From: a virus
Taxonomy: Duplodnaviria; Caudoviricetes
DNA: 64,000 bases
Strand: one strand, 5' to 3'
IMG/VR virus record: IMGVR_UViG_3300032123_000052
Location: 64,001 to 128,000 of that record
Part shown: in pieces, positions 22,269-46,860 of the stretch
How positions within the stretch are numbered: the stretch's first letter is position 1
Layout of the letters: every line of letters starts with the position of its first letter
Translations under genes and position numbers: made by a program
Notes under the pieces: generated by a model
The model's input: the letters and a program-made list of their open reading frames with translations, nothing else
Told to the model about the DNA's origin: nothing
The model's database searches: none

Positions 22269-24473
22269 ATGATTACAGTAAACGAATCCGTTATAGAAAA
22301 GTTGTCATTTGAAAAGGTAGGAGAATATGAGCTACCTAAAAATATTTCCGAATGGGATCAGGAGATACTGGATCAGTTTTTCGAGCAAATAAGTTACCTT
22401 CCGAAAGAATTCGGTGTTGATGTAATAGTTAAAAGCGTCAATGAAAATGAGGGATACGCAAAAGGTAGCGTTGTTGTGTGGTACCAGGAAAAACAGATAA
22501 ATTTTCCTGTTATTGTGAACAATTTTAAATTAAGCCCTTTTGATGTATTTGTACATAAGGATGGTGATAAAACAAAATACGTATCAGCAAATTTGAGAAA
22601 TATAAAAAAGATTCTTTCATCTGAAGAATTGGGCGTCCCAAAAAGAAAATACCCCAAAGGGGCTTTTGAAGCAATCAAGCCGGTTGGCGGCATATATCCA
22701 AAAACGGCTGTTAACGCCAACGATGTTCCAGACTTGGGTGAATATCCTCAATTTGCAAAAATGTCCGCATGGCCACTTTTGGCTCATCAGGACGATATTG
22801 AAAAACTTGCCGTTCAAATGGAGGCTGAGGAAAATGTAGGTAAGAATTTTGTAGACAATACTGGCGACCTCATTGGTAATATTATAGAACTCAATCGGCA
22901 TAACAGAATTGTAGGCGACGATCATAAAGAAGGTATCCTAGATACTTATAAAGTAGTTAAGGCGAAGCGGGTTCTTACCGTTCTTGATTCACAATTCATT
23001 GATGTTAATCAACTCAAACCTATGGTTGCTCCGGTTGTGTGTGAGTTGAGGATGTATGAATACCCGTCTCTTGAAGATTTTATTGAGAATGGGAAGGATA
23101 TGGCTGGAAGATTTTTGGCCACCACAAATGGTAAACCAATTCCCGGAGTGGTCCTTGATACAGTGAGTAGCTATGACCTTAATCGCAGATTTGACATTCT
23201 TGAACCATGCGATCCGAGTGATAGTGAAAACGAAAAAAAGAAAGAGGAAAGAAACAGACGTGATCAGATATTTATTTCTCTTGACGGCAAGTACTATTGT
23301 AAATATGAAGATTATGATCGTACTGGTATAGGGTTTTATGGATCTAACATATTAACTCAAGATGGCGCCATGCAGAAAGCAATTCAATATCTTGCCAAAA
23401 AAACAACTGATGAATTAATTAATATTGATCCAGAGAATCGTAATGACGGTTCGGATAAATCATTCCTTGGAATCCATAGGCACATGGAAAAAATGATGAA
23501 CCAGGGTTCAGAAGATGGCTATTATGGTAAGAAATATGATGGGAATAGTTATGGTGACTTGTTTGTTATATATGGCGCTGACGATGCTTTTGAATGCCTT
23601 TCTTTTAATCGCAAATTCAGAAAATACAAAGTAAACAATTCTCATGTTTATGTATCTAAGGAAGAGGCGATTATCCCTGCAAATGTAGCCAGCGTTCAGA
23701 GGGTCAGAAGTGTTGAAAATCCTGTTTACAAAATGATTTTGGGTAAAGTTAATAAAATTTATCTCATTCCTGAAGGTGCGTTAATTATCAACGCGGCAAT
23801 GATGAAGATTCTTAATAGAGACGATTTCTTACGACCGGCCAAATCGATTCAGAAAACATACGAAGATGCTAATATCAATAAGGTCGCACTGTATGTCAAA
23901 GATGGCGGATACTATATCTCCGGAAAACCATTTGAGCCTCTTCAGAAAGTGGCCCATCTTAACGGAAAACCACTTTCGACTGATCATACTTTTAAAGCTT
24001 TACATATAATGGGTATGAGTAAAGACGCTGCAGCAAAAGCAATGAAGGTGGCTTTGGCAAAATATGCCAGCAGTGAAATACGCAACAAAGCTGTAACCAT
24101 TTATGGTGTCAATAATGATTATATTGATACCAGCGTTATTTCCACTATCGAGAAGATGGCTAAAATCAGGCAGATCATAAAAAATGAGTGCCAGAAAATG
24201 AGAATCGATCTTACTAAAGAAGCCAGCGTCCTTGATGATCCTGAAGCTGTAGATGTCGTATTATCGCTGAACTTCATCAACGAAGACAACCTGAGCGGAT
24301 ATGTTGAAAACGTCCGTGAAATGAAAAAGGTTGCTGGCGACCTTGCTGAACTTCTGGTTGCTTCACGCATGGGATTAAGCACGGTTGATGAAGACGCTGT
24401 GAAAAAGGCGATGGATGGTCTTAATACTGTAATTGTAAATCTTGAAGAGATAAAAATGGCTACTGAAGAGTAG
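22269..24473 (+). CDS. Large hypothetical virion-associated protein
   Basis: 734 aa with AAGGA RBS; multiple K-x-A sites (EKLA, QKVA, EKMA, KEAS, KKVA). Confidence 0.7.
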   Translation: MITVNESVIEKLSFEKVGEYELPKNISEWDQEILDQFFEQISYLPKEFGVDVIVKSVNENEGYAKGSVVVWYQEKQINFPVIVNNFKLSPFDVFVHKDGDKTKYVSANLRNIKKILSSEELGVPKRKYPKGAFEAIKPVGGIYPKTAVNANDVPDLGEYPQFAKMSAWPLLAHQDDIEKLAVQMEAEENVGKNFVDNTGDLIGNIIELNRHNRIVGDDHKEGILDTYKVVKAKRVLTVLDSQFIDVNQLKPMVAPVVCELRMYEYPSLEDFIENGKDMAGRFLATTNGKPIPGVVLDTVSSYDLNRRFDILEPCDPSDSENEKKKEERNRRDQIFISLDGKYYCKYEDYDRTGIGFYGSNILTQDGAMQKAIQYLAKKTTDELINIDPENRNDGSDKSFLGIHRHMEKMMNQGSEDGYYGKKYDGNSYGDLFVIYGADDAFECLSFNRKFRKYKVNNSHVYVSKEEAIIPANVASVQRVRSVENPVYKMILGKVNKIYLIPEGALIINAAMMKILNRDDFLRPAKSIQKTYEDANINKVALYVKDGGYYISGKPFEPLQKVAHLNGKPLSTDHTFKALHIMGMSKDAAAKAMKVALAKYASSEIRNKAVTIYGVNNDYIDTSVISTIEKMAKIRQIIKNECQKMRIDLTKEASVLDDPEAVDVVLSLNFINEDNLSGYVENVREMKKVAGDLAELLVASRMGLSTVDEDAVKKAMDGLNTVIVNLEEIKMATEE

Positions 24474-28009: not shown

Positions 28010-28666
28010 TTAATAGCGGTAATCTACAATGGTTCTTTTTGTTCGTGATTTTCCAGCGGAATAGCCCCCGCCAGCTAGACCAACTCCACCTACTAATCCC
28101 GCGGCGTACGGATTCGCTTTGGCTGCGCCCATTACACGACTTCCTGCAAGACCAAAATGCGTTGACCTCATACCCGCTGGTACTTTGATACCAGCTATCG
28201 CAGAGCTTCCTGCTGCCTTTAATCCCTTTCCAAGACCAGAGAATTGACCGCGAAGCGTTTTGAGACCTTTCATTCCGAGAGCAGCCAGCGATTTGATTGG
28301 GTAGCCAAGCTTTTCAATTTCATCGAGGAACGCTTCGTTGGCAATATCGGAAGCTGTTTTTTTCATAGGTGTTGACGCAGATGGTTCTGCAGAGGCCATA
28401 TTGTAACCAAGGGCAACGCCTCTCCTGAGATATTGATTGGCAAGTACGGTATTTTCTTTTTTATTAAAAGCTTTGAATGAATCTACTATTGATTTATTTT
28501 CTTTCGTATTAGCTTCAGAAAATGCAATAGCCATTTTGTTGCCCATTCTCTCGGCGCCAGCTTTAGTGCCAAATCGGTGCCCAACTGCTGCGCCACCACC
28601 GGCAAGTGCAACCCCACCCCCAAGAATGCCAAGTAAAGCCTTGGCGGCTATAGCTTCTTTATTCAT
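28010..28666 (-). CDS. Gly/Ala-rich membrane-like protein with KKTAS and AFLDEIEKLG motifs
   Basis: 218 aa, two Gly-rich hydrophobic segments; AAGGA RBS. Confidence 0.7.
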   Translation of the reverse strand: MNKEAIAAKALLGILGGGVALAGGGAAVGHRFGTKAGAERMGNKMAIAFSEANTKENKSIVDSFKAFNKKENTVLANQYLRRGVALGYNMASAEPSASTPMKKTASDIANEAFLDEIEKLGYPIKSLAALGMKGLKTLRGQFSGLGKGLKAAGSSAIAGIKVPAGMRSTHFGLAGSRVMGAAKANPYAAGLVGGVGLAGGGYSAGKSRTKRTIVDYRY

Positions 28667-28816: not shown

Positions 28817-29866
28817 ATGGAAAAAATTCCGTTCAAGAAATTTATCATTGCGCTCCTATTCTGTGGCAAAGATGTCAACGGAGTCGTAGATAAATTAAAA
28901 ACATTCCATTATAAAATAATGCCGGAAGAAGTTTCCCGCATATTCGATGAGGTTAGAACTGTCCTCCCAGAAACTATAAGAAACCTCATAAATGCCGCAG
29001 GCGTTCTCAGGCCTGGCGACGAGCAACATGCCGAATGGCTTAAACATTTTGGCATATTCGAAATTTATGATCACATCCTGAGATCTGCAAAAAATATTGA
29101 CAGTCCCCCTAATTACTTCAAATGGTGTGATGATTGTGTGTGGATTCATACTTATCAAGATGTTATGTCAATCGTTAATATTTTCCTCTTCAATGATGAG
29201 CCAGTAGAAACAATATCCGATGTTCTGATTGTCAAATTTAAAAGAAAAGTTGGTGTTGACACTCTTGAATTATATAAAAATATTTTCTGGGACACTATTG
29301 ACTTAACCGCCAAAGATGCGTTAAAATATTGTATTCCATTTAAAAACAACGCTTTGATAATAAGGCAGTTCAGGTCAGGGGCGGGCTCAGAAATAGAAAT
29401 GGCGGGTGGGCCGGCTTCTTATGACGGATGTGAGGTTCCATTTCATTTTCATGATACAGAATATATAAAATGGAAAATAGGATATAAGGTTGAGGCCCCA
29501 AAGCCAAAAGACTTCCTTGAGAAAGTTCAGACTGATAGTATGTATAAATATTATGAAACTATGAATATGACTCAGAGCATTGAGGTTGAAGAAGAAGATG
29601 GCGATAATAACATGGGAGACTTCAGTTCAACCAGAACAAAGCATCGCAATGTTGAAGAGATGAAGGCAAATGCCGCTAAGAAATGGCTTGATATGTATAT
29701 CAAAGCCAAAGAGCACATGCCTGATGACCGAAGTGATTCTGACGACTTCTTTAAGAAAATGAATCAAGTTGAGCTTGAGTTTGGTAATTGTACAGAGCAG
29801 ATTGCCAACATTGAAGATTTGCCGGATGTAATGGGTGATATAGCAGGTGATCAAACAAACCTATGA
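28817..29866 (+). CDS. Hypothetical protein, terminase small subunit candidate
   Basis: 4-bp overlap with terminase large subunit start; position only. Confidence 0.4.
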   Translation: MEKIPFKKFIIALLFCGKDVNGVVDKLKTFHYKIMPEEVSRIFDEVRTVLPETIRNLINAAGVLRPGDEQHAEWLKHFGIFEIYDHILRSAKNIDSPPNYFKWCDDCVWIHTYQDVMSIVNIFLFNDEPVETISDVLIVKFKRKVGVDTLELYKNIFWDTIDLTAKDALKYCIPFKNNALIIRQFRSGAGSEIEMAGGPASYDGCEVPFHFHDTEYIKWKIGYKVEAPKPKDFLEKVQTDSMYKYYETMNMTQSIEVEEEDGDNNMGDFSSTRTKHRNVEEMKANAAKKWLDMYIKAKEHMPDDRSDSDDFFKKMNQVELEFGNCTEQIANIEDLPDVMGDIAGDQTNL

Positions 29867-31533
29867 ACGTAACCCCAATACAATTCGCAATAGGGCTATT
29901 CTATTTAAATAGAATGCCTCTCCAAATGCCTTATGATTCTATGAGGCATCTTTATCCTATTTACAATAAACAATCTAATGCAATGATGTTCAAGTTCGGA
30001 CGCCAAACGCACAAATCAACCACGATTGCATTTAAGTTATCATTACCAGCCATAAAATATCCATCTTACCACGCTCTATATGTCGCTCCGACAGGAAACC
30101 AAGTATCAGTATTCTCTACTGATAAGCTCAACAGTGCGCTACATGAGTCTGATTTGGTGAAAGGCCATTATTTCGACACTAGAACAAAAGACCAGGTCTC
30201 ATATAAGGAAATGAAAAATGGTAGTAAGATCTATCTCCGGTCAGCATTTCATACTGCTGACTCTATTCGTGGTATATCAACTGATTTTTCAGCAATAGAT
30301 GAGATTCAGGACATCGTCAGTGACCATATTCCAGTTATTGAACAATCCATGAGCCATAGTCTGGCGAAGTGGGAGCATTTAGTAAAAAAATATCCTACAC
30401 TCCCTATGCATTTGTTCAATTGTAAATTATATGCCGGTACTCCTAAAACAGTTGAAAATACAATGGAAAGGTATTGGGATGAATCTACCCAGAATGAATG
30501 GGTTGTCAAATGTCAGAATACCGGATGTAAAAAATATAACCTCATCAATGAATACAATATTGGTGATACTTGTCTGATATGTAATAAATGCGGAAAGCCT
30601 ATATATTACCGTGATGGGCAATGGGTCACAATGAACAATGAAAATCCATATATCGATGGATTTAGGCTCCCTCAGATAGTTTTGGATTGGGTAAACAATA
30701 TAAGGAACCCTGAAGCATGGCAGATAAATGTTATACAAACAAGAAAAATATATTCTACCGAAAAATATTTTAATGAAGTTCTTGCATTACCATACGCTGC
30801 GGCAAAACATCCTTTAAGCGTTGTTGAGATCAAAAGGTGCTGCAAGGAATACGAAATGGTAGAAGAAGATTGGGTACAGAGTGATCCACTTTCAAAAAAT
30901 AGTTTAACGTTTGCCGGAATTGATTGGGGGAAAGGCGATACCGCCTCTGGCACATCGTATTCAATGTTGACAATTGGCGCATGGCATCAAGCTAGATTTA
31001 AAGTATTATTTAAAAAGAAATATACTGGTAGATTGTCAGCACCAATACCACAAGTAAAAGATATGATTAGAATAATCAATCGATTCAGATGCGTTCTCAC
31101 TATAGCTGATACAGGAGATGGAAGAACAGCGAACGCACTTATGGTTGATGCTTTAGGGGTACCAAGGTTCGGGGAAATATATGAACACGGTACTTTAAAA
31201 AAGAAAATCAGATGGGATAAAGATAAAGGTTATTATATCATGAATCGTACCCAAGTGATGACTGATATGATAATGGAAATAAAAAGAGATGAGGTTGATT
31301 TTTTTAAGTACGACCAGTTTAAAGAATATCAACCCGATTTCACTGGCATATTTTCAGAATATAGCGAACAATTAAGAATGACAAAATATGATCATAATGT
31401 TCCCGACGATGCCTTCCATTCATATATGTTTAGTAGGGTAGCATGCAAAATACTAAGAGGAGAATATTCAAAATATCTTACTGGTGGCGCTGATCCATTT
31501 GCAGAAGAGGAGCCATCAGCAATATCAATATAG
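29863..31533 (+). CDS. terL: Terminase large subunit (GpA-like)
   Basis: Walker A FGRQTHKST, RGISTD + Walker B AIDEIQD, coupling motif AGTPKT, Zn ribbon CQNTGC/CNKC, nuclease GIDWG and PDDAFHS. Confidence 0.9.
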   Translation: MNVTPIQFAIGLFYLNRMPLQMPYDSMRHLYPIYNKQSNAMMFKFGRQTHKSTTIAFKLSLPAIKYPSYHALYVAPTGNQVSVFSTDKLNSALHESDLVKGHYFDTRTKDQVSYKEMKNGSKIYLRSAFHTADSIRGISTDFSAIDEIQDIVSDHIPVIEQSMSHSLAKWEHLVKKYPTLPMHLFNCKLYAGTPKTVENTMERYWDESTQNEWVVKCQNTGCKKYNLINEYNIGDTCLICNKCGKPIYYRDGQWVTMNNENPYIDGFRLPQIVLDWVNNIRNPEAWQINVIQTRKIYSTEKYFNEVLALPYAAAKHPLSVVEIKRCCKEYEMVEEDWVQSDPLSKNSLTFAGIDWGKGDTASGTSYSMLTIGAWHQARFKVLFKKKYTGRLSAPIPQVKDMIRIINRFRCVLTIADTGDGRTANALMVDALGVPRFGEIYEHGTLKKKIRWDKDKGYYIMNRTQVMTDMIMEIKRDEVDFFKYDQFKEYQPDFTGIFSEYSEQLRMTKYDHNVPDDAFHSYMFSRVACKILRGEYSKYLTGGADPFAEEEPSAISI

Positions 31534-32317: not shown

Positions 32318-32441
32318 CCCTTTATGTGATTAATTGTATTATTATATAAGATAACACAGGGATGGCAAATAATCAATAATAGTTGCAAGCTAATGGCTTA
32401 TATGTTATATTTTTGATAGACCCTTCACTTTGGTGATTATA

Positions 32442-33278
32442 ATGAGTTTAATTGATAATATAAAAAATACAGCCCATAAGGCGTCTGAAGATTATTTACT
32501 TACCGGTGTCGATATGAATGATACGATATTAGATTCGTACCATGCCGGAGATGTTTCCAATTTAGAAGTATTAAAACGAATCTGTGAACTTGCTAATCAA
32601 AACGTTTATCTTTCATTGTATCATGATGAGGATACCGACAAGAAAAATATTTCTTTTGTTCTTGCCGATTTTAATAATTTGAAAACTGAAATTTTAAAAA
32701 GTGAGAAAGCTATGGAAAATTATGCAACACCACCTGGCGATTTCCGTTCACTGTTAACGCTCATTGTCGGCAAAGATGCCGGCAATATCCAACAAGCTCC
32801 TAATAATGGAGAAAAGCTTGCTGAATTTCAAAAAGTTGGAAATTATAGAAATGTTTTCGAGGCGTTTATCAGCGATGTTGAGTCGTTACGATACAGCGAA
32901 ATACAAAATGCAGAGAAGGCTTTTTTAAAGATTGCTCACGACACAAAGATTATGGTCTCAAATGGTGAGTCAATTGGTGATATGGCAAAAATATCATCAA
33001 GGTTTGCTAAAGAGGCTGGTCTTGACCCCATGAAAGTTGCCGCTGCTTATAATATAATTCATCAAGATTTGGTTAATGATGGATTCACTGTAAACACCGA
33101 ATTTACAAAAGTATCATCTTATCGCATTAATAGTAATGCAGACATGCTCCAGCCGGTTAATGAATTTATTATGTCATTGGAAAAAATAGCCGCCACCACA
33201 GAGATGGTCCATAATTTAACAAATTCGCTGTCGGCTTTTAATAAGGTTCTTAAAGAAGAGCTTGTTGCCCAGAAATAA
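32442..33278 (+). CDS. Hypothetical head-associated protein rich in K-x-A sites
   Basis: EKLA, LKIA, AKEA, MKVA, EKIA; first gene of the operon leading to the protease. Confidence 0.65.
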   Translation: MSLIDNIKNTAHKASEDYLLTGVDMNDTILDSYHAGDVSNLEVLKRICELANQNVYLSLYHDEDTDKKNISFVLADFNNLKTEILKSEKAMENYATPPGDFRSLLTLIVGKDAGNIQQAPNNGEKLAEFQKVGNYRNVFEAFISDVESLRYSEIQNAEKAFLKIAHDTKIMVSNGESIGDMAKISSRFAKEAGLDPMKVAAAYNIIHQDLVNDGFTVNTEFTKVSSYRINSNADMLQPVNEFIMSLEKIAATTEMVHNLTNSLSAFNKVLKEELVAQK

Positions 33279-33283
33279 TAAAT

Positions 33284-34027
33284 ATGGGAATTAAAGAGAA
33301 CATTGAACTTGATATTGTTGGTAAAGCAATTAAGCCGACAGATAAACCACTCAGTGATGAATTCGCTGACAGGGTTCGATGGAGCGCGCTAAGCTCTCTT
33401 ATCGGTGTGGCTGTTGCTGCATCACCAATGCTCTTTAAAAAAAAGTTCAAAGACGTAAAAATACCTATGGCTGCTTTTGGATTGAGTGGCGTTCCAATGG
33501 GATGGAATCTTCCCCGTGTTCATAATAAATATCTTGAATATATTAAGGGGATAGGTTCTAAATCTGAAGCACAAAAAGCATATACTAAACTTGTTGAAGA
33601 GGAGGTTGATGTAAGAGAAAGGACTCCGATATTATTTGAAAAGACATCCTTTCTCAGTACAGCGACAAGGCTTGGTGGAACAGCTGCAGGAAAAATTGTT
33701 GGAAGGGCCGCTGCTACCGCAAAAGGGACTGGAAAATTTATTGGACAGGGATTAATGCCGATAAAGAAAATTGATACCGGCCTTGTTACAAAAAGAAAAC
33801 TTTTAGGAAGACGCGGAATGCTTCATGCTTATTCAGTAAGAGGGGGCCTTGGGATTGCTGGTGTTGCCGGGGCGGTTGGTGGCACAAGAGCATTTCAATC
33901 CAGGCGCAAACTGTCTGGGCAAAATTATACAACTTTCTTGAGAAATAATGTTCTTGCTGGAAATATAAAACCAGAACAATTGTCTCAAGCAGATTTGGTT
34001 GCGGTGAGACGAATGGGGATGAGATAA
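33284..34027 (+). CDS. Hypothetical membrane-like protein
   Basis: Hydrophobic Gly/Ala segments; FEKTS site. Confidence 0.65.
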   Translation: MGIKENIELDIVGKAIKPTDKPLSDEFADRVRWSALSSLIGVAVAASPMLFKKKFKDVKIPMAAFGLSGVPMGWNLPRVHNKYLEYIKGIGSKSEAQKAYTKLVEEEVDVRERTPILFEKTSFLSTATRLGGTAAGKIVGRAAATAKGTGKFIGQGLMPIKKIDTGLVTKRKLLGRRGMLHAYSVRGGLGIAGVAGAVGGTRAFQSRRKLSGQNYTTFLRNNVLAGNIKPEQLSQADLVAVRRMGMR

Positions 34028-34281
34028 TGAATGCTATATGGAATTCATTTTTTAGGGAAATGGAAAAGGTTGCAATAAGCCCTATGACTGTTGCGATGCA
34101 TAGTATGAATTTATTAAATCTCAAAGATAAAATTAGAGAAGCAAAATCGACAACACAATTAAATCCTATAAGTAGAGATACATCGACTTCTAATTTGAAA
34201 TTAAAATCACCTTACCAATATCAATTTGAAGGTGGTAAAAAAACCGGATTGACCGCAACTACGACTCCTCATACATTTTAA
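34027..34281 (+). CDS. Small protein with SFFREMEKVA tag
   Basis: TAATG coupling; 84 aa. Confidence 0.65.
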   Translation: MNAIWNSFFREMEKVAISPMTVAMHSMNLLNLKDKIREAKSTTQLNPISRDTSTSNLKLKSPYQYQFEGGKKTGLTATTTPHTF

Positions 34282-34292
34282 AGGAGCTTTCG

Positions 34293-34895
34293 ATGGAAGA
34301 TAGAATAAAAACAGCTGCCGACAATATGCTTACAAAGGGAAGTATAACTGATGTAGAGCATGGTGAACTATGTAAAGTCGCATTAAAATTTAAAGATATT
34401 ACAAAGGGCCTTGAGACTCTTGGTGGTAAAAGGCAAAAAATTATAAATCTCCTTGGGGGCCTTGCTTTGCTTGGTGGTGGTGTTTATGCCGGCAAAGAGG
34501 CGGTTATTGATCCTTTGGTCCAAGCAGTCAAAATTAATAAGTCTTTTAAGGCTATGGCACAAAAAGTTCCTCAACTTGCAGACCAGGACCAGAAGCAGAT
34601 GAAAGACTACTTCAACGTTATAAAAACATTTTCACCGAAAGCGGCTTCTAATCCATTAGTTGCAGGCGCCCTGGTTAATAAAATGATGCAATTTGGTGGG
34701 GTAGACCATAAACTGGTTCAGGATATATCGGCAATTCAGGCCGGTCTTCCTCAGCCGAGAGTAGCACCAACCGTTGTTGAAAGTGTAGCAAAGGCAGTTG
34801 GTTCGGCTGCTATTCCAACGGAGAAGACCATATCTGAATTTAATGAATATGGTAATTTACAACCAATGTCGGTAACTACCCAAACAGGAAAATAA
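34293..34895 (+). CDS. Hypothetical membrane-like protein
   Basis: AAGGAG RBS; IKTAA and CKVAL sites; LLGGLALLGGGVYAG helix. Confidence 0.65.
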   Translation: MEDRIKTAADNMLTKGSITDVEHGELCKVALKFKDITKGLETLGGKRQKIINLLGGLALLGGGVYAGKEAVIDPLVQAVKINKSFKAMAQKVPQLADQDQKQMKDYFNVIKTFSPKAASNPLVAGALVNKMMQFGGVDHKLVQDISAIQAGLPQPRVAPTVVESVAKAVGSAAIPTEKTISEFNEYGNLQPMSVTTQTGK

Positions 34896-35189
34896 ATGAT
34901 ACCGCTAAACGGGTTTGAAAAAGATGCCGGGGTAATAAAATTAATCACCAAGTCACCAAAATTTGTCAGATACCCGATTTATACACTCGGTCTTCTTGGT
35001 GCTGGTGCCGCCGCAACTGGTATCGCAAATCGTATACACGATTTATATAATATAACCAGTGAGATACGGAAGCGTAAGATCATGCATAAACAGACTGATT
35101 TGCTGAAGCAGATTGCCAACCATGGTAAAAAAGAAAAAAAAGAATCTTCTGTTCCGAAACAAAAGGTTGTGATAAATCCTTTAACATAA
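34896..35189 (+). CDS. Small hypothetical membrane-like protein
   Basis: FEKDAG site; LGLLGAGAAA helix. Confidence 0.6.
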   Translation: MIPLNGFEKDAGVIKLITKSPKFVRYPIYTLGLLGAGAAATGIANRIHDLYNITSEIRKRKIMHKQTDLLKQIANHGKKEKKESSVPKQKVVINPLT

Positions 35190-35199
35190 GAGGTATAAA

Positions 35200-35646
35200 A
35201 TGAGTATATATCAAGAGATTTACCAGGAAGCTTTTAATGATGAGCTTGAAAAGATAGCGAAAGAAGAAAAAACAGCGCCACAGGCTTATGGAAGTTATTT
35301 TAAATCGGTTATGCCAAGATTTGGCATCGGAAGCGGCATGAAGCATTTTGTAAAAAAAGAAACTGGAAAAGACATTTCAAAAAAAGAGGGTGGTAAGTTG
35401 TATCGCAAACATATTTATAACCCAGGGGTTTTAAAAGGTTTAGTTGGAACAGGTGCTGGTGGTATTGGGGGCGCTGGTGTTGGGGCGCTTATATCTTCTC
35501 TTAGAGGCATGAAAGGAAGATACGCAACGCTTGGGGCTTTAATTGGTGGCGCTACCCTTGGTACTGTTACTTCAGCGATGGGTGCAGCAAAAGGTGCACA
35601 GCAAATTGCAACTGGAAAGGTCCCAATAGAAGAAGAAAAAATCTAA
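35200..35646 (+). CDS. Small Gly-rich protein with YQEAFNDELEKIA tag
   Basis: GAGG RBS; two Gly-rich hydrophobic helices. Confidence 0.65.
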   Translation: MSIYQEIYQEAFNDELEKIAKEEKTAPQAYGSYFKSVMPRFGIGSGMKHFVKKETGKDISKKEGGKLYRKHIYNPGVLKGLVGTGAGGIGGAGVGALISSLRGMKGRYATLGALIGGATLGTVTSAMGAAKGAQQIATGKVPIEEEKI

Positions 35647-35649
35647 ACT

Positions 35650-37440
35650 ATGATTAAATATATCCAATACGATTCGATTGATGAAACCGGTCAGCACATT
35701 ATACCGATAAACTCAATCGAACAGCTTAACAAAACTGCTACGAGCAACTACGCTCCGGAGCTGATGAAGGTTATTCTCAACCTCAATCGGAAGCCAGAGC
35801 GGTACTATGTTGTTATCAATGCTCTTGGGTCATATGAAGTTTGGGGTTCCAATCGTAATGGTGATGCCTTCCCGGAAGCAGGCCTTTCCCACAAATCATT
35901 ACGTACTGATATGAATACCGCAAATGATTATGGGTATAAAACATTTGAATATTATGCAAAATTCTATAAGCACCATGTGAATAAAGATCCAAGTCGTTCT
36001 TTTGGCGAAATAATATTTGCCCACTGGAATCCTGTGCTTCGTCGTGTTGAGTTGATTGCCGCAATCGATGTGGTGAAGGGTGCTGATATAGTAAGGTCTC
36101 TTGAAACTGGCGAGCCTGTAAGTGTTAGTATGGGTTGTCGGGTCCGGTTTGATCGCTGTAGCATTTGTCAACATAAAGCAAAAACCAGGAAGACCTACTG
36201 CAAGCATCTCAAGAATTATATGGGCCAGATAGTTACTCCCGAACTTGCCGCCTTATGGTCCAAAGAGCTTGGGAAAATAATACTTCCTGGTACTATGGTT
36301 TTCGCTTTCAATGATTATCCTCGATTTTTTGATATATCGAAAGTTTTTATAGGTGCCGACCGTACATCGTTTGTTTTGGGTAAGGCTGCATCGGCAGGCC
36401 TAGTTATAGCTTCTGTAGATTTGGCAGACGCATACGGAGTAACCGATGCGATGTTTGATAAGGCTGCCCAAGTTAAAAAAGAGGGTGACATCGATAAAGA
36501 GGTAGGGGCTTTGGGGAAAGATGATATCGATGGTACTATGAAACCTGCTGATAATGTCACTGTTTTCAGAAAAGCCCTCGATGAAAAAATGAATAAAACA
36601 ATAGCTGCCGAACCAAAACTTCCGAACGATCTTCTCGACTCAATGGCGTCAACCCACCCATTAAATAGAATATTATCTACTATATTAGGCCTTGGTATAC
36701 ACCCGAAGCCTGACGAGTTTCAAAGAATCGTTCTGATACGGGCTGGACAAAAGCCACTTGCTGATGAGTTGGAAAAGCAGGGTACTATATTTGACTATAA
36801 GAGCGATGTCGAACCACAAGATATAGATATATCAAATTATTATTATGACGACACTCTCGCTAGATCACTTTCTACTTATATCGAAAAGAGAAGTTGTTTT
36901 CCGACGTTCCTTCAATCAAGGTTGTTGGTGGTTATGGAGAAAACAGCTCAGTTTCCTCCTCCTATTGGAAAAGAAAAAAAGGAATTTAAAATCGGACCAA
37001 AGGTAGCGGTTCTTGTCGGGCTTGCGGCGCTTTATGCTGGATTGAAATTAAAGGCAAAAGGCTACGGGTCGAAACAACTTGCTGAGATTTTTACAAAGAA
37101 ACAATGGCTTCGCTCTATTATCGGTGGCGGGGTAATGTATAAAATATTTGAAGAGATAGGTAAAGCACAACACGAAAATCCGATGCTTGGTCCGGCTGTT
37201 AATTATGAAGGTGCACTCCGTGACACCAATTTTTCTGGCAAAATTGTGAAGCAATCAGCATTAAATGTATTGACCGATGCAATAGTCCTTCCAGGCGCGT
37301 ACATAATAAATTCATATAATCAAGACACATTGTATAAAACCAGTAAACTGTTTTTTCCTGAGCAAAGTATTAATAATAATTTTGCGCTGGATAATATAAA
37401 CTCAGAATTATTGAAAAAAAAGTTGTTTGAAATCAAATAA
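35650..37440 (+). CDS. Prohead maturation protease (HK97/assemblin-like) with long C-terminal extension
   Basis: RNGDAF, KHHVNKD, VELIAAID, VSVSMGC (catalytic Ser candidate), CSIC..C.H; upstream of scaffold-like genes and MCP. Confidence 0.8.
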   Translation: MIKYIQYDSIDETGQHIIPINSIEQLNKTATSNYAPELMKVILNLNRKPERYYVVINALGSYEVWGSNRNGDAFPEAGLSHKSLRTDMNTANDYGYKTFEYYAKFYKHHVNKDPSRSFGEIIFAHWNPVLRRVELIAAIDVVKGADIVRSLETGEPVSVSMGCRVRFDRCSICQHKAKTRKTYCKHLKNYMGQIVTPELAALWSKELGKIILPGTMVFAFNDYPRFFDISKVFIGADRTSFVLGKAASAGLVIASVDLADAYGVTDAMFDKAAQVKKEGDIDKEVGALGKDDIDGTMKPADNVTVFRKALDEKMNKTIAAEPKLPNDLLDSMASTHPLNRILSTILGLGIHPKPDEFQRIVLIRAGQKPLADELEKQGTIFDYKSDVEPQDIDISNYYYDDTLARSLSTYIEKRSCFPTFLQSRLLVVMEKTAQFPPPIGKEKKEFKIGPKVAVLVGLAALYAGLKLKAKGYGSKQLAEIFTKKQWLRSIIGGGVMYKIFEEIGKAQHENPMLGPAVNYEGALRDTNFSGKIVKQSALNVLTDAIVLPGAYIINSYNQDTLYKTSKLFFPEQSINNNFALDNINSELLKKKLFEIK

Positions 37441-37675
37441 AATTATATAATTTAATTATATTCAGCATAGGGAAAAATATTGCATTCGATATATTATAAA
37501 CTTATATTGTTATTAGTAACTGTAATACAGTTTAACGCTGTTGAGCAGATAAATGGTATTGTGGCGTATCATAAGTGAATAAGGGTAATTTAAAAATATC
37601 AAACTTCACTTAAAAAATTGTCACTAAACATGCAATTGAAAATAATCCTATTTGTTTAACCAATGGAGGTTATAC

Positions 37676-38689
37676 ATGAGTCCCAGAGAAAAGACAAGCT
37701 TTGAGGATCATCTCAACATTGTTGAGTCAGGTCAAGACAAAACTGCCTCTGCCCCAAAAGGCGAAGGCACTTTGCTTGACAAACTGGCGAGCGAACTCGG
37801 CATCGGAGAAGAGAAAACTGCAGAAGTAAAAGCTCCCCCTGAAACTGGTGGTGAGAAAGCTGCTCCAAATGGAGCTGGTGCCGGATCTTCTGTAACAGAT
37901 GGAAAAGCACCCGCAGCAGAAGGTGAAGTTCAGCCTGCGGCTTCGAGTGTAGCTGGCGCAGCACCTGCTGTCGTAGCTGCCACTGAAGGTGTTGCTACTC
38001 CTCAAACCGAAATTGCTGGCGGAAACGCCGCTGAAGCCGCAGCCGGAGAACAGCCTGCTGCAACAAAACCAAACGAAGGTCTTGCAATATCCGCTGGCGA
38101 TGGGGTTGTAACTGATGCTAACCAGCTTCATAAGACTCCTGCCGCTGTAATGGAAGCCGCAAAAAATTCTGATGGTACTGTCATGGGCGCAAAGACTGCA
38201 GAGGAAGCAGGGGCTATTGGTAAAAAAATAGCTGAAACTTTCCAGGCGCATCTTGAAAAGACAGCTCAAGACCAGGAATACACTGAGGCTCTTGTTTTAC
38301 TGAAAGAGGGCGGCCTCCTTGAAGGTTATAATATCAAGGATGAGGGCTTAACAAAGGAAGCCGGTGAATCTGTTGACTATCTCCAGAAAATTGCCAACAA
38401 AGAACAGCTTTCCAGAGAAGATATAATCGGTTCAGCATATCAGGCAATTGAAATGCAAAAAGAAGCTGAAGAAGCGGAGGTTCAGGGCCGTGAAGATGCT
38501 CAGAATCTGGTTGCCTCAGTTACCGAGCTGATTGAAAAGAAAGCTGGAGAAGGTGCACCAGCGGCACCAGCAGCACCAGCAGCACCGGCGGCACCTGCCA
38601 CTGATGAGCAGGCAAAGCTGGCAGAGTTAATGAATGATGAAAATGTTGTTAAAGCGGTAAAGACTCTGAAAGAAAAAAATCTTCTCTAA
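37676..38689 (+). CDS. Acidic Ala/Glu-rich scaffold-like protein (start revised to ATG 37676)
   Basis: GGAGG RBS; about 11 K-x-A sites; low-complexity APAAP tract; between protease and MCP. Confidence 0.6.
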   Translation: MSPREKTSFEDHLNIVESGQDKTASAPKGEGTLLDKLASELGIGEEKTAEVKAPPETGGEKAAPNGAGAGSSVTDGKAPAAEGEVQPAASSVAGAAPAVVAATEGVATPQTEIAGGNAAEAAAGEQPAATKPNEGLAISAGDGVVTDANQLHKTPAAVMEAAKNSDGTVMGAKTAEEAGAIGKKIAETFQAHLEKTAQDQEYTEALVLLKEGGLLEGYNIKDEGLTKEAGESVDYLQKIANKEQLSREDIIGSAYQAIEMQKEAEEAEVQGREDAQNLVASVTELIEKKAGEGAPAAPAAPAAPAAPATDEQAKLAELMNDENVVKAVKTLKEKNLL

Positions 38690-38707
38690 AATAGGAGGGG
38701 GTTTTTC

Positions 38708-39208
38708 ATGGTCTTTAAAAATATTGGCCAGTTGATCCTGAGTCATTTGGCTCCGGGTCAGCAGGCTACCGAAAAAACAGCTTCTGAAAGCTATACACCT
38801 GAAGAGGCTAAAAGAATTTCTGAAGGCTTGGCCAAAGTGGCATCATTTCCCTGTAAAGAGGAAGTGTACACTTCGGTGCAGGAGATGATGAAAATAGCTT
38901 CTGAGTGTTTGGCATATATGACGGAATCTCTTAATTCCGCACAAGAGCGAAATACTGGGCTTGAAAAGGCTGCCCAGGTTCGGCTGGTCCTGGACGACTT
39001 GATTCATTCAGGTCTCGTCTCAGACGATAGTGATGCCGAAGAGAAAATTGCCGAATTGATGAAGAAAGATGAAAAAGGTCTGGAAGTCATTAAAGAGGCA
39101 ATTAAACTTGCTCAAAACGGTGAAGGAGAAAGTTTGATTTTCGAAAAAGCTGCAAATGATTCAGCCGAACCAGATAAAAAGGCTGGAATGTTTGACGGCG
39201 TTCTCTAA
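38708..39208 (+). CDS. Helical scaffold-like protein
   Basis: AGGAG RBS; nine K-x-A sites (KTAS, KVAS, KIAS, KAAQ, KIAE, KEAI, KLAQ, KAAN, KKAG). Confidence 0.55.
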   Translation: MVFKNIGQLILSHLAPGQQATEKTASESYTPEEAKRISEGLAKVASFPCKEEVYTSVQEMMKIASECLAYMTESLNSAQERNTGLEKAAQVRLVLDDLIHSGLVSDDSDAEEKIAELMKKDEKGLEVIKEAIKLAQNGEGESLIFEKAANDSAEPDKKAGMFDGVL

Positions 39209-39232
39209 TCACCAATAACAAGGAGTATAACA

Positions 39233-39706
39233 ATGCTTGAGATGTTAACTCTCATGAACAAGGTCGAGCGTGTTTCCCGTAGAATCGATCCTGACAATTT
39301 CGTAGCAGTTCCCGGTATTTGGGCAGAACTTGATACTGATGGTAGTATCAAAAATGTCACAACCGACACGCCAGGGCTTATGAACAAGCTCGTCATTGGC
39401 AACGCCTCCAGCAATGTCTATGAATCACACGATGTGAGTGTTGGTCGTATCACTACCGTCGAATCATACGGCGATCGTTTCAAAGTTGATTCAGAAGGCT
39501 ATTCCGGAACAATTGTTGCCGGTGAGGACTTAATTGTTTCAACAACGTCCGGCACCGAAGGTAAGCTGGTTGGTATTGCGAATCAAGCAGAAGCTACTGG
39601 CAACTATGAAGTTGTTGCTCGTGCAGAAGAGGTGAATGGTACTGCAGGCTATATTGTTTTCAGAACACTTTCACCTGGAACTGTTGCAGCTTACGCAGCA
39701 GCGTAA
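39233..39706 (+). CDS. Putative capsid decoration/cement protein
   Basis: 157-aa beta-rich protein directly upstream of MCP; AAGGAG RBS. Confidence 0.5.
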   Translation: MLEMLTLMNKVERVSRRIDPDNFVAVPGIWAELDTDGSIKNVTTDTPGLMNKLVIGNASSNVYESHDVSVGRITTVESYGDRFKVDSEGYSGTIVAGEDLIVSTTSGTEGKLVGIANQAEATGNYEVVARAEEVNGTAGYIVFRTLSPGTVAAYAAA

Positions 39707-39787
39707 TAGTGGTTGATATTGAAATCCCGGGCCGGGTAACACCGGCCCATTAAAACTATTAAAACTACTCAAAAGTAGGAGCTAATT

Positions 39788-40813
39788 ATGCTTGATCATG
39801 TAACGGCCATGCAAAGTAACGAAAGTTTCCTTGAAAAGGTCAGTACTCTTGAGGGTCAATCACAGCTTTCCGAAGCCGGTCGGCAGTATGTAAAGACCGA
39901 ACTCCAGGAAGCGGCATTTACTCGTGCCATCATACCCCAGGAGCCAATTACTGTGGCGGACTGTCAGAGAAACGTCAATGACAACTCTCTGTATCTGATC
40001 CGTGACATAGAGCCAGATGCAGCTGCTGTCGCAGTTGATAATCTGGGTGAGCCTGACGGAAAGTACGTCAAAGGCGAGCGGTACATCATACCAGTTATCA
40101 ATTTCGTTACCCGGCGTTTCCAGATTACTGTTGAAGACCTTCGGGCCTATCAGTATAAAATCACCAAGCGTATTGAGGATAAGTCAGTTCCTGTTCTCGA
40201 AAAACTTGAAGATACTTATTTTTTACGCCTGGCTGGCGCATCTCTTTCAGTTGCTGCCTCAGGATCTCAGAAAGCTGTTAAGCATTCTGGTTCAACCGCT
40301 TTGACTATTGAAGCTAAAGATATAGTCAACATCAAAAATACTCTTGCATCAGGTGTCAATGGTTCAGACGCAAAGAGAAAAGAAGTGGCATGCCTGTTGA
40401 TGTGTCAGGAAGCCTTCGAAACCGCAGTATTTCTGCCTGGCGCAGGTGACGATTTCGGCAAAGATCGTGTTCTTCATGGCATCACTTCCGATACGCTGTA
40501 CGGAACAAAAGTCGTGAAAACAATCAAAAGCGACCTGTTGCCAATTGGTCACATCTGGGCATTTACCACTCCGGATTTTCTTGGCCATAACTTTGCACTC
40601 GGCGATCCGAGCTTTGAGATCAAATCCAACTTCGGTCTCATTGAATGGCAGACCAAAGAGTCAATTGCCACAGGTATCGGAAACGCTTTGTCAACATGTC
40701 TTCTGGCGCTGCTAGGCTCAGTTAATCCTGGTGGATCAACTGACCTTACTGTTACAACAACTGGCACTGTTGATGCAGATATTACCGCTTACTATGCTGG
40801 GCTGGTAATATAA
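39788..40813 (+). CDS. Major capsid protein (HK97 fold)
   Basis: 341 aa after protease/scaffold/decoration genes; E-loop/spine-like pattern (FTRAIIPQEPIT, GERYIIP, RRFQITVEDL, LEKLEDTYFL); AGGAG RBS; followed by a terminator. Confidence 0.75.
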   Translation: MLDHVTAMQSNESFLEKVSTLEGQSQLSEAGRQYVKTELQEAAFTRAIIPQEPITVADCQRNVNDNSLYLIRDIEPDAAAVAVDNLGEPDGKYVKGERYIIPVINFVTRRFQITVEDLRAYQYKITKRIEDKSVPVLEKLEDTYFLRLAGASLSVAASGSQKAVKHSGSTALTIEAKDIVNIKNTLASGVNGSDAKRKEVACLLMCQEAFETAVFLPGAGDDFGKDRVLHGITSDTLYGTKVVKTIKSDLLPIGHIWAFTTPDFLGHNFALGDPSFEIKSNFGLIEWQTKESIATGIGNALSTCLLALLGSVNPGGSTDLTVTTTGTVDADITAYYAGLVI

Positions 40814-42661: not shown

Positions 42662-43459
42662 ATGAAACCTTTGACTGATGAAGAGATTACTAAATTCGCT
42701 GGGGCAAGTTCAAAATTCAAAGAGCTTCTTCTTAAAGCAGCTGCTCAGAATGAGTCAACTGGATTTAACGAAGCCCCTCCTGTGAATGATGATGGAGAAG
42801 GAAATAATGGCGAATCGCCTAAGAAAAAAGAGGTTAAACCACCTGAACAAGCACCAGCACCACCTGTGGAAGCTGTTTCTCCGGAAGTCGCGCCTGCACC
42901 TGCCGTTGCTGGAAGCCCGGAAGAGGCTGGCGCTCGAGCAGCACAAGCTTTTATCGGGCCTGAAGTAATGGCTGCTGCCGCAAGTGGAGACCCTGGTGCC
43001 GCAGATGTTATAGCAAGAACTGCAGGCGCAATAGCTGCAGCGGTAACCGAGAAGGCATCTATGGCCATGGGTGGCGGGGCGCCGGCAGATGTTCCTCCTG
43101 AAGGAATACTGCCTGAAGGTGAATTGCCAGTTGAAGGCGCTCCTGCAGGAATTGCAGCAGTACCTGCCGGCCCTCCTGGAACAGCGGCACCTGGAACGGC
43201 GGTACCTGCACCAGCTCCAACTCCTGAAGGTGTAGTTGCTGATAGTATAATTCCGCCTCAGAATGCAACACCACCAACACCACCTCAGCCCCCAGCGGGC
43301 GGTATGCCACCGCAAGGTGACAGTAAAGCGCCAAATACAATGGTAGCTCCGCAACCTTCTGGGCAACCTGTTCCTGCAAATGGTGGCCAAGGAGACATGA
43401 CTTATGACGCCCAGACCGTAGCTAAGATGATTCAGTTGGCAAAGGCGGGAAAGATTTAA
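42662..43459 (+). CDS. Pro/Ala-rich low-complexity protein
   Basis: AAGGAG RBS; TKFAG and LKAAA sites. Confidence 0.65.
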   Translation: MKPLTDEEITKFAGASSKFKELLLKAAAQNESTGFNEAPPVNDDGEGNNGESPKKKEVKPPEQAPAPPVEAVSPEVAPAPAVAGSPEEAGARAAQAFIGPEVMAAAASGDPGAADVIARTAGAIAAAVTEKASMAMGGGAPADVPPEGILPEGELPVEGAPAGIAAVPAGPPGTAAPGTAVPAPAPTPEGVVADSIIPPQNATPPTPPQPPAGGMPPQGDSKAPNTMVAPQPSGQPVPANGGQGDMTYDAQTVAKMIQLAKAGKI

Positions 43460-45774: not shown

Positions 45775-46860
45775 ATGTTATACACACAGCAGAGTACAGC
45801 CACAATTGCCAGTGGAAATTCAAGCGTAGATAAGACATTGGCTTCTAATATAACTGATTTGTCAAGAGCATTTCTTTTGATGTGGTCAACAGGTCCTAAT
45901 GATTCTAATTCTATTGCTACAGGATACCTGTGGAATGATGGCGGTACAACTAAAATAAAATTTGAACGATATGGTTCTACTCTTGATTGCAGTATTGGTT
46001 ATATGGTTGTTGAGTGTAGAAATCAAGAGTTTTCGGTACAAAGAGGAGTACAAGCATTTACTACTGCGGAAGTAACTAAAACATTAGATTTCGGTACTGC
46101 TGTAGATACTCAACGATCCCTTGTTATTGTTAACGGTAGAGGAAACATGTCTGCCGGCGATCTTAATTGCCATTGTGCTTATTTCACCGGGGAATTCACG
46201 AACGTAGTAGCTAACTCTACGGATGATATTATATTGACAAGAGGGGCATCTGCAAGTTTAACTGGTACTGCTAGATATGAAGTTGTCGAATGGTCTTCCG
46301 CATCTGGTGTTACTGTGCAAACTGGAGAAAAAGATTGTTCTGGAGATTTATCGTCTGGAGTTACTGATACAATAGACACAGCCGTAACACCTGCAAGAAC
46401 ATGGCTTTATACCACTTACCGACATGCAGTTACAGGTCTTGAACAGACCTCAATTAGAGACGTGTTGACAAACGGGACAACCATTACTTTTGATAGATAT
46501 GATGAAACGTCTTCTTATCAATCATATGGTAGGTGGTGGATTATAGAGTTTCCGGCAAATGGCGTTATAGTAGAGCACTTGACAGATGAAATTGCCAGTG
46601 CGGATGCTACAGAAGATACACCATGTACAGCAATCACCCTGGCAAACTCTTATATATGGGCTGGAAATAATGTTAACGGTACAGGCAATGCCATTCCCAG
46701 AGATAGATTGTATTGGCAATTCACCTCTACAACAAATACAAGAGCAACTCGCGTATATACTGGACAAGCCGCCCAATTAGCTGTACAGACTATAGATACT
46801 TCTGCATGGGATACATCTCCAACAGGTGGTAATCCTTGGTATGCTTATTCACAACAATAA
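45775..46860 (+). CDS. Thr/Ser-rich structural (fibre/appendage-like) protein
   Basis: 361 aa with about three internal repeats (..VVE....F.VQRG / ..VVEW....VTVQTG / ..IIEF....VIVEH). Confidence 0.55.
   Translation: MLYTQQSTATIASGNSSVDKTLASNITDLSRAFLLMWSTGPNDSNSIATGYLWNDGGTTKIKFERYGSTLDCSIGYMVVECRNQEFSVQRGVQAFTTAEVTKTLDFGTAVDTQRSLVIVNGRGNMSAGDLNCHCAYFTGEFTNVVANSTDDIILTRGASASLTGTARYEVVEWSSASGVTVQTGEKDCSGDLSSGVTDTIDTAVTPARTWLYTTYRHAVTGLEQTSIRDVLTNGTTITFDRYDETSSYQSYGRWWIIEFPANGVIVEHLTDEIASADATEDTPCTAITLANSYIWAGNNVNGTGNAIPRDRLYWQFTSTTNTRATRVYTGQAAQLAVQTIDTSAWDTSPTGGNPWYAYSQQ

Follow-up and report, generated by a model that had tools for sequence, protein, structure and literature searches.

A Lys-x-Ala motif enriched in the head-assembly proteins of an uncultured phage is a probable signal of its prohead protease

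The DNA analysed here, called the window throughout, is a stretch of 64,000 nucleotides covering bases 64001-128000 of a virus record of 208,085 bp (IMG/VR IMGVR_UViG_3300032123_000052) from an uncultured phage. Its head module contains a prohead protease gene that adjoins the genes for a scaffold-like protein and the major capsid protein (MCP). A sequence-only reading of the window had proposed that a short motif, K-x-[A/S/G], saturates the head-associated proteins and is the cleavage code of this protease. We therefore compared the occurrence of Lys-x-Ala (K-x-A) in the proteins of this genome, in related phages and in the wider protease family. The proteins concerned are the following, with coordinates in the window unless the genome is named, and with lengths in amino acids (aa).

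22269..24473, + strand: 734-aa protein with 13 K-x-A, 10 of them within residues 538-729
32430..33278, + strand: 282-aa head-module protein (278 aa if the start is the ATG at 32442) with 6 K-x-A
35650..37440, + strand: prohead protease, 596 aa, matching phrog_18299 'head maturation protease'
37652..38689, + strand: scaffold-like protein rich in Ala, Glu and Lys, 345 aa from a TTG start or 337 aa from the ATG at 37676, with 12 K-x-A
38708..39208, + strand: 166-aa helical protein (p166) with 9 K-x-A
39788..40813, + strand: MCP, 341 aa, sharing 26.7% identity (E = 4e-20) with the protein annotated as MCP in Salmonella phage Arash
Genome 45857-46690: 277-aa open reading frame (ORF), rich in K-x-A, about 1.2 kb upstream of the portal gene

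All of the sites quoted in the sequence-only reading were present, with 12 K-x-A in the scaffold-like protein where about 11 had been counted, and with the numbers listed above for p166, the 282-aa protein and the 734-aa protein. The protease contained seven, including NKTAT, GKAAS, DKAAQ and EKTAQ, and the EKVS near the N-terminus of the MCP was found within FLEKVS, residues 14-19. When each protein was compared with 100,000 composition-preserving shuffles of itself, K-x-A was enriched in the head-assembly proteins as had been supposed. There were 9 observed vs 1.83 expected in p166 (p<=1e-5), 13 vs 4.64 in the 734-aa protein (p = 2.8e-4), 12 vs 5.33 in the scaffold-like protein (p = 2.2e-3) and 6 vs 1.94 in the 282-aa protein (p = 7.6e-3). 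A second shuffle within 25-residue blocks, which keeps the local composition, changed the enrichment of the individual proteins little and gave p = 1.5e-4 for the scaffold-like protein. The top five of the 236 ORFs of the genome were p166, the 734-aa protein, the scaffold-like protein, the 282-aa protein and the 277-aa protein, and no excess of K-x-A was found when all 236 ORFs were pooled (322 vs 302).

The enrichment may be suspected of reflecting chance or composition, with a motif picked post hoc in proteins that are rich in Lys and Ala. The motif was in fact chosen after it had been seen, and four of the five enriched ORFs failed correction for 236 ORFs on their own, p166 alone surviving it. 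Against this explanation, the shuffles preserve composition and the block shuffles local composition, p166 reached the lowest p-value given above, and other Lys/Ala-rich ORFs were not enriched (for example, 4 vs 3.6 in 28010-28666 and 2 vs 2.9 in 42662-43459). Because the motif had been picked after being seen, all residue pairs with gaps of 0-3 were also scanned. K-x-A ranked first of 625 pairs in p166 and the scaffold-like protein together (z 5.8, the next pair 4.2), and in p166 alone it was the lone outlier. The enrichment in the K-x-A-rich ORFs other than p166 is carried by replication in orthologues, as described below.

The K-x-A part of the proposed motif was thus upheld, and Ser and Gly at the third position were not enriched in general. 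Counting K-x-[ASG] in place of K-x-A raised the number in p166 from 9 to 10 and in the scaffold-like protein from 12 to 16, where about 3.8 extra would be expected. We rejected K-x-[S/G] as a general code on these counts and on the ratios in the protease family given further below.

Nine related IMG/VR loci with the protease at 53-86% identity were analysed. The p166 orthologues had K-x-A z-values of 5.4-8.3 in all six loci that reach the gene, the scaffold orthologues z of at least 3.6 in five of six loci and 1.8 in the sixth, and the 282-aa orthologues z of 2.2-4.4 in eight of eight. In two complete relatives (G001 and G002), the 734-aa orthologues contained 11 K-x-A vs 4.3 expected and 14 vs 5.0, and the 277-aa orthologues 9 vs 3.0 and 7 vs 1.9. 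Eight sites in the 734-aa protein and five in the 277-aa protein were common to all three genomes, while their flanks differed.

The only cultured relatives of both the MCP and the protease were Salmonella phage Arash and Vibrio phages D181, D148 and D69, with a protease identity of about 34%. K-x-A was enriched in Arash gp220 (10 vs 3.0), gp222, the protease (7 vs 3.2), gp223 (8 vs 3.0) and gp225 (7 vs 1.8), and in D181 0275 (11 vs 3.9), 0277 (8 vs 3.0), 0278 (10 vs 2.9) and 0280 (6 vs 1.7). These genes are the syntenic counterparts of the head-module genes in the window. The 282-aa protein is weakly homologous to Arash gp220 (pairwise E = 2e-5). The Arash scaffold could not be aligned with the scaffold-like protein of the window (best pairwise E = 0.19) and is nevertheless enriched, so the K-x-A enrichment has outlived sequence similarity. 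In the p166 family, K87-A-A89 was invariant in all nine aligned sequences, including those from Arash and D181. The Lys of the motif was invariant at 38 of 54 positions compared to 71 of 170 for other Lys (Fisher p = 2e-4), and the Ala at 34 of 54 compared to 61 of 175 for other Ala (p = 2.4e-4). In the scaffold-like protein, 7 of 12 motif Lys were invariant vs 1 of 16 other Lys. Judged from these alignments, the greater conservation of the motif Lys and Ala than of their peers is a mark of purifying selection.

The signal extends to cultured phages of Gram-positive bacteria, with 8 K-x-A vs 2.4 in gp19 and 7 vs 2.8 in gp21 of phage G. Four uncharacterised proteases, Bacillus phage G gp19, mycobacteriophage Myrna gp97, Arash gp222 and D181 VPHD181_0277, are sequence relatives of the protease in the window, with E-values of 8e-13 to 8e-37 and of 3e-6 for the N-terminal domain of gp97. 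Myrna gp97 (1211 aa) contained 15 K-x-A vs 7.4 and 16 R-x-A vs 7.9; this high-GC phage differs from the phage of the window in that Arg-x-Ala is enriched beside Lys-x-Ala. Myrna gp97 (L014 8887-12522) is annotated as a 'tape measure', starts with a domain of the head-protease family (E = 3e-6) and is encoded just upstream of the major head protein gene. On this sequence evidence it is more likely a protease-scaffold fusion than a tape measure.

The protease matched phrog_18299 over residues 67-188 (E = 3.9e-8), with no Pfam family at E<=0.01 and no sequence match in the PDB. An AlphaFold (AF2) model of residues 1-300 built from 82 sequences had a mean confidence score (pLDDT) of 88. Foldseek alone gave weak matches (best E = 0.05). 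Structural alignment with VIA-align placed T4 gp21 first (5jbl_A, Z 10.6, root-mean-square deviation 2.8, 130 residues aligned), followed by the varicella-zoster virus (VZV) protease 1vzv (Z 10.2) and the pseudorabies virus (PrV) protease 4v08_A (Z 10.0), with unrelated MlaD/MCE entries at Z of 7.0 or less. In the model, the protease has the fold of T4 gp21 and the herpesvirus assemblins, in agreement with the kinship assumed in the sequence-only reading. The gp21/assemblin-fold core spans about residues 31-247 and is followed by a C-terminal extension. Conservation was counted in 137 proteins, the protease of the window and those 136 of the best 150 cluster representatives that are at least 400 aa long, and the counts below refer to this set.

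35731..35739, + strand: K28-T-A30, site in front of the core (K 128/137, A 129/137)
35974..35976, + strand: His109, candidate catalytic histidine in HHVNKDP (135/137)
36127..36129, + strand: Ser160, candidate catalytic serine in VSMG (137/137)
36382..36393, + strand: K245-A-A247-S248, candidate release site (K 129/137, A 123/137, S 77/137)
36460..36468, + strand: K271-A-A273, second site after the core (K 112/137, A 93/137)

Other conserved residues were D168 (137/137) and, as possible third members of the triad, H108 (121/137) and H186 (128/137). Near-invariant K-x-A sites thus lie on both sides of the catalytic core. K28-T-A30 adjoins residues 21-28, the only low-confidence segment of the model. 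K245-A-A247-S248, in the context LGKAASA, directly follows the last strand of the fold (residues 241-245), which gives way to coil. The cultured relatives share the K-x-A sites after the core.

Two further observations concern the active site of the protease. Cys170, Cys173, Cys184 and His186 form a C-x2-C-x10-C-x-H element (window 36157-36210, residues 170-187) conserved in 137, 136, 136 and 128 of the 137 proteins, and this element resembles a zinc-binding knuckle placed immediately after the candidate catalytic serine. Some members of the family are about 400 aa longer (L011 8486-11407, P0001 and P0026), and their match breaks at about residue 164, after Ser-Met-Gly-Cys. The longer members matched Pfam LAGLIDADG_3 above the cut-off and had weak matches to intein-splicing domains, which suggests that the active site of the head protease is interrupted in them by an intein that contains a homing endonuclease. 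A split match of the same kind was seen in about 10 of the 150 representatives.

A HMMER search retrieved 2957 cluster representatives of the protease family at E<=1e-3. In the 136 family members defined above, K-x-A occurred 1287 times vs 606 expected. Altered pairs were at or below expectation, with ratios of 0.91 for A-x-K, 0.84 for R-x-A, 0.90 for K-x-S and 0.65 for K-x-G, and the Glu rules of other phage proteases were at expectation ([LI]-x-E 757 vs 765, ratio 0.99; [SAG]-x-E 1173 vs 1198, ratio 0.98). Behind residue 280, in the C-terminal extensions, K-x-A was the top of 1309 pairs (522 vs 302); in the protease core it was at expectation (183 vs 164).

Scanning IMG/VR with a profile recovered 79 loci, of which 59 had at most 46% identity to the query. 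After 13 short or duplicate-looking loci had been left out, 46 of these distant loci were analysed and 42 were usable. The K-x-A ratio was 2.04 in the protease gene; 1.96, 2.15 and 0.94 at positions -3, -2 and -1; and 2.60, 1.85, 2.14, 1.64 and 1.42 at positions +1 to +5. It was 0.91-1.21 at positions -4 to -6 and +6, and A-x-K and R-x-A were at 0.62-1.20 at all positions. In the distant loci, only the protease gene and particular genes near it are enriched, and the enrichment travels with the protease. Since the enrichment replicates in orthologues and in independent distant loci, chance was excluded as an explanation, and we give it a negligible probability.

We conclude that K-x-A is probably the signal by which this phage's own prohead serine protease, and the family to which the protease belongs, recognise and cleave their substrates, because 137 diverse members have near-invariant K-x-A sites on either side of the catalytic core and because the enrichment accompanies the protease gene in 42 distant loci. 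All of the comparative tests supported the assignment made in the sequence-only reading, namely the enrichment, the conservation, the sites flanking the core, the distant loci and a control with phage T4. T4 gp21 cuts at L/I-x-Glu sites in gp22, gp67, gp68, gp23 and internal proteins, and the rule in phiKZ and SPN3US is (S/A/G)-x-Glu. In the same shuffle test, [LI]-x-E was enriched in T4 gp22 (16 vs 5.8, z 5.0), gp21 (7 vs 2.6, z 3.1), gp68 (z 2.5) and gp23 (z 2.3), and it was not enriched in the sheath or the terminase. A cleavage code does leave this kind of statistical trace, since the known rule of T4 was recovered.

The main rival explanation is that K-x-A serves a structural or binding purpose in helical head-assembly proteins, for example in contacts with the shell or between scaffold helices, and is conserved for assembly while remaining uncut. 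Five of the nine sites in p166 lie in confidently predicted helices, the hydrophobic residue at -2 and the Ile, Val or Thr at +1 relative to the Lys have the i, i+3 spacing of an amphipathic helix, and all of the proteins that carry the motif are expected to co-assemble. However, the reversed pair A-x-K was not enriched (0.91 in the family and 0.6-1.15 in the distant loci). K-x-A was also not enriched in other scaffolds (T4 gp22 6 vs 3.4, P22 gp8 3 vs 3.3, lambda Nu3 1 vs 0.7) and is therefore not a general property of helical scaffolds. The best-conserved sites are at the borders of the protease domain or in low-confidence segments instead of in the helical scaffold, and one site is near the N-terminus of the MCP. 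If the motif served binding, there would be no reason for it to flank the protease core in 137 diverse members. We consider this explanation unlikely, though it deserves more weight than the others.

Another explanation is that hydrophobic-x-K-x-A is an acceptor consensus for modification of lysines in head proteins, by conjugation of a ubiquitin-like protein or by cross-linking. The SUMO consensus is likewise centred on a lysine, and ThiF/E1-like genes were present in five of the five clade genomes searched (this genome, G001, G002, Arash and D181). Three of these genes are placed as follows.

This genome, 51206-51814 (outside the window): ThiF/E1-like gene
Arash, 176809-177291: ThiF/E1-like gene
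D181, 175623-176108: ThiF/E1-like gene

In contrast, neither phage G nor Myrna had a ThiF match (0/2), yet both keep the protease, the flanking K-x-A sites and the enrichment. The motif goes with the protease family. Modification of the lysine would also give no role to the equally strict Ala or to the Ser that often follows it, and we regard this explanation as very improbable.

The context of the motif was examined at 158 K-x-A sites in 18 proteins from six genomes. Position -2 was Leu, Ile, Val, Met or Phe at 115 sites vs 40 expected, position -1 was Glu at 58 vs 17 expected, the middle residue was mostly Ile, Val or Thr, and the residue after Ala was Ser at 46 vs 11.5 expected. The constants of the motif were Lys and Ala, and the fuller signal suggested by these counts is hydrophobic-x-Lys-x-Ala-(Ser/Ala/Glu). 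Lys is preceded by a variable residue at the best-conserved sites (Gly, Glu or Gln at 244 and Asp, Lys or Leu at 270 of the protease; Glu, His or Gln in the p166 family). Since this residue is not fixed there, a T4-like cut after Glu is unlikely, and a cut of the form hydrophobic-E/K, where the slash marks the scissile bond, was rejected because the Glu rules also showed no enrichment. The over-representation of Ser after Ala and the after-Ala rule of the structurally related assemblins led us to place the putative scissile bond after Ala, with about an even chance that this is correct. The natural C-termini of short family members were tried as a clue to the scissile bond and set aside, as a terminal K-x-A was seen in 1 of 150 and the short members look like fragments.

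A candidate site for processing of the N-terminus was found in the MCP.

39827..39844, + strand: F14-L-E-K17-V-S19, candidate MCP N-terminal processing site, translation FLEKVSTL

Among 120 MCP homologues, 110 carried the pattern F-[LIM]-[EDQ]-K-x-[ASG]-[TS] at residues 12-17, and the second residue after Lys was Ala in 78, Ser in 23 and Gly in 9 of these 110. E-K-V-S in the window can thus be taken as a variant of the canonical site, because most of the homologues with the pattern have Ala. The N-terminus of the MCP is the one site where Ser or Gly replaces Ala. F14 and K17 were invariant out to Arash and D181. A depletion of K-x-A in the body of the mature MCP (42 vs 205, ratio 0.21) was considered as additional support and discarded as uninformative, since other pairs in the same 120 close sequences range from 0.03 to 2.66.

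If K-x-A is the signal of the protease, maturation could proceed in the following way. The protease would be built into the procapsid along with the scaffold-like protein, p166 and the 282-aa protein; the 734-aa and 277-aa proteins would probably be included too. The protease core would be set free by cuts at K28-x-A30, K245-x-A247 and K271-x-A273. The helical scaffold proteins would then be chopped at their many sites into fragments able to leave the shell, and the MCP would be trimmed by about 19 residues at F-L-E-K-V-S. Both the cleavage of the motif and the set of proteins inside the procapsid are inferred here from sequence comparisons. It is also possible, if somewhat doubtful, that a cut after alanine, in the form hydrophobic-x-Lys-x-Ala/Ser and akin to that of assemblin, is the rule for the protease family as a whole, with its 2957 clusters that include phage G, Arash, many jumbo phages and the cluster C mycobacteriophages.

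Several observations weigh against K-x-A as a protease signal. The protease of the window alone was not significantly enriched (7 vs 4.50, p = 0.15). At the position aligned with the MCP site, Arash has K-I-D and D181 has K-L-D in place of K-x-A; in both proteins K-E-A follows ten residues after this position. The p166 sites at residues 62, 87, 113, 129 and 133 are inside predicted helices (model pLDDT 68). In single relatives, five ORFs outside the expected set reached z of at least 3 (L006 14981-15661, L008 1269-2312, L007 1400-2440, L011 261-1490 and L012 4996-5217), and these may be further substrates or noise. The counts over homologous proteins, which are those of the motif context, the protease family and the distant loci, are non-independent events, so their z-values overstate the significance. 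No cleavage product of this phage or of any relative was found in the literature examined, and the available parts of the Arash virion proteomics paper and its feature-table supplement contained no peptide-level data or experimental termini. The available part of the phage G multi-omics paper likewise gave no experimental termini, and the phage G capsid protein in PDB 6wkk chain A starts at residue 1, which is uninformative either way.

The remaining genes around the head module are listed here.

29863-31533: large terminase TerL (phrog_675, E = 3e-55)
33284-35646: five small Gly/Ala-rich ORFs with hydrophobic stretches, between the 282-aa protein and the protease
39233-39706: 157-aa protein
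Genome 47859-49946, outside the window: portal gene, product 29% identical to Arash gp204 (E = 3e-69)

The gene order TerL, protease, scaffold-like protein and MCP is the same in Arash and D181. The portal gene is more than 45 kb from this terminase-protease-scaffold-capsid module. The five small ORFs of 33284-35646 keep their position in the relatives and were without K-x-A enrichment (0 vs 2.4, 1 vs 0.5, 4 vs 2.2, 1 vs 1.0 and 3 vs 1.7). The 734-aa protein had no match in Pfam, PHROG or Atlas, and no similarity to Arash gp218 or to a 625-aa ORF of the related locus L008. Elsewhere in the window, a 2115-aa ORF (9224-15571) matched Arash gp206 with 30% identity over about 1500 residues, and its residues 1531-2111 were 23% identical to Arash gp216. 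Arash gp206 and gp216 are annotated as RNA polymerase beta and beta', and these two subunits appear to be fused in one gene in this phage.

If K-x-A is the signal of the protease, the set of processed proteins inside the capsid could be read from sequence alone, including those whose genes are remote from the head module, for example the 734-aa and 277-aa proteins, and packaged or ejected cargo proteins could be flagged in the same way. A rule other than a cut after Glu, readable from sequence and valid for a family that numbers thousands, would allow the boundaries of mature capsid, scaffold and internal proteins to be predicted for several phages in culture and for many that are not. Should the cut fall after Ala, the capsid proteases of phages and herpesviruses would be tied together by their substrate specificity in addition to their fold. 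The rule is directly testable in cultured relatives by existing methods.

To our knowledge, only a few phage head proteases have a known cleavage rule (T4, phiKZ/SPN3US and HK97), and in the large phages studied the cut is after Glu. In the literature searched, in which subscription journals are poorly covered, no phage protease was described as following a Lys-x-Ala rule. The same literature held no cleavage data for gp19, gp97, gp222 or VPHD181_0277, and no characterised member of the protease family was found. The kind of system is known, namely a capsid protease with a short signal in many copies; the signal and the protease family differ.

The protease of the window is like T4 gp21 in its fold, with the Z of 10.6 to 5jbl_A, and like T4 this phage has a three-residue signal that occurs many times in the scaffold or core proteins and in the protease, with the same statistical signature. 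Published work describes cleavage after Glu by the proteases of T4, phiKZ and SPN3US (PMC5694885), in line with the background given in the sequence-only reading, and multiple copies of the motif in propeptides together with self-cleavage of the protease in SPN3US and phiKZ (PMC5694885, PMC10052503). In contrast to T4 and phiKZ, the signal here is Lys-x-Ala and Glu is not required. Unlike T4 gp21, the protease here is 596 aa long, with a long C-terminal extension, a Cys-x2-Cys...Cys-x-His element and no Pfam match.

For the herpesvirus assemblins, the pUL26/UL80a proteases, cleavage is described after Ala, often before Ser, with release of the protease at a site that ends the protease domain (PMC4498786), and this agrees with the sites ending in Ala on which the sequence-only reading had drawn. 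Release and maturation sites in PrV include YLQA/T and VQA/S (PMC4498786). The protease here is like assemblin in its fold (1vzv and 4v08_A, with the Z-values given above) and in its layout, with an N-terminal protease, a conserved Ala-Ser site at the end of the domain (K245-[VIL]-A247-S248) where cleavage is predicted, and a C-terminal extension. A small Ala followed by Ser is common to the sites of both. Unlike the assemblin sites, those in this phage have Lys two residues before Ala and a hydrophobic residue four before it. There are many sites per protein here vs one or two in the assemblin system, and a conserved site is also present in front of the protease core. Finally, the scaffold of this phage is encoded by a separate downstream ORF (37652-38689), whereas that of the assemblin system is nested in frame in the protease gene.

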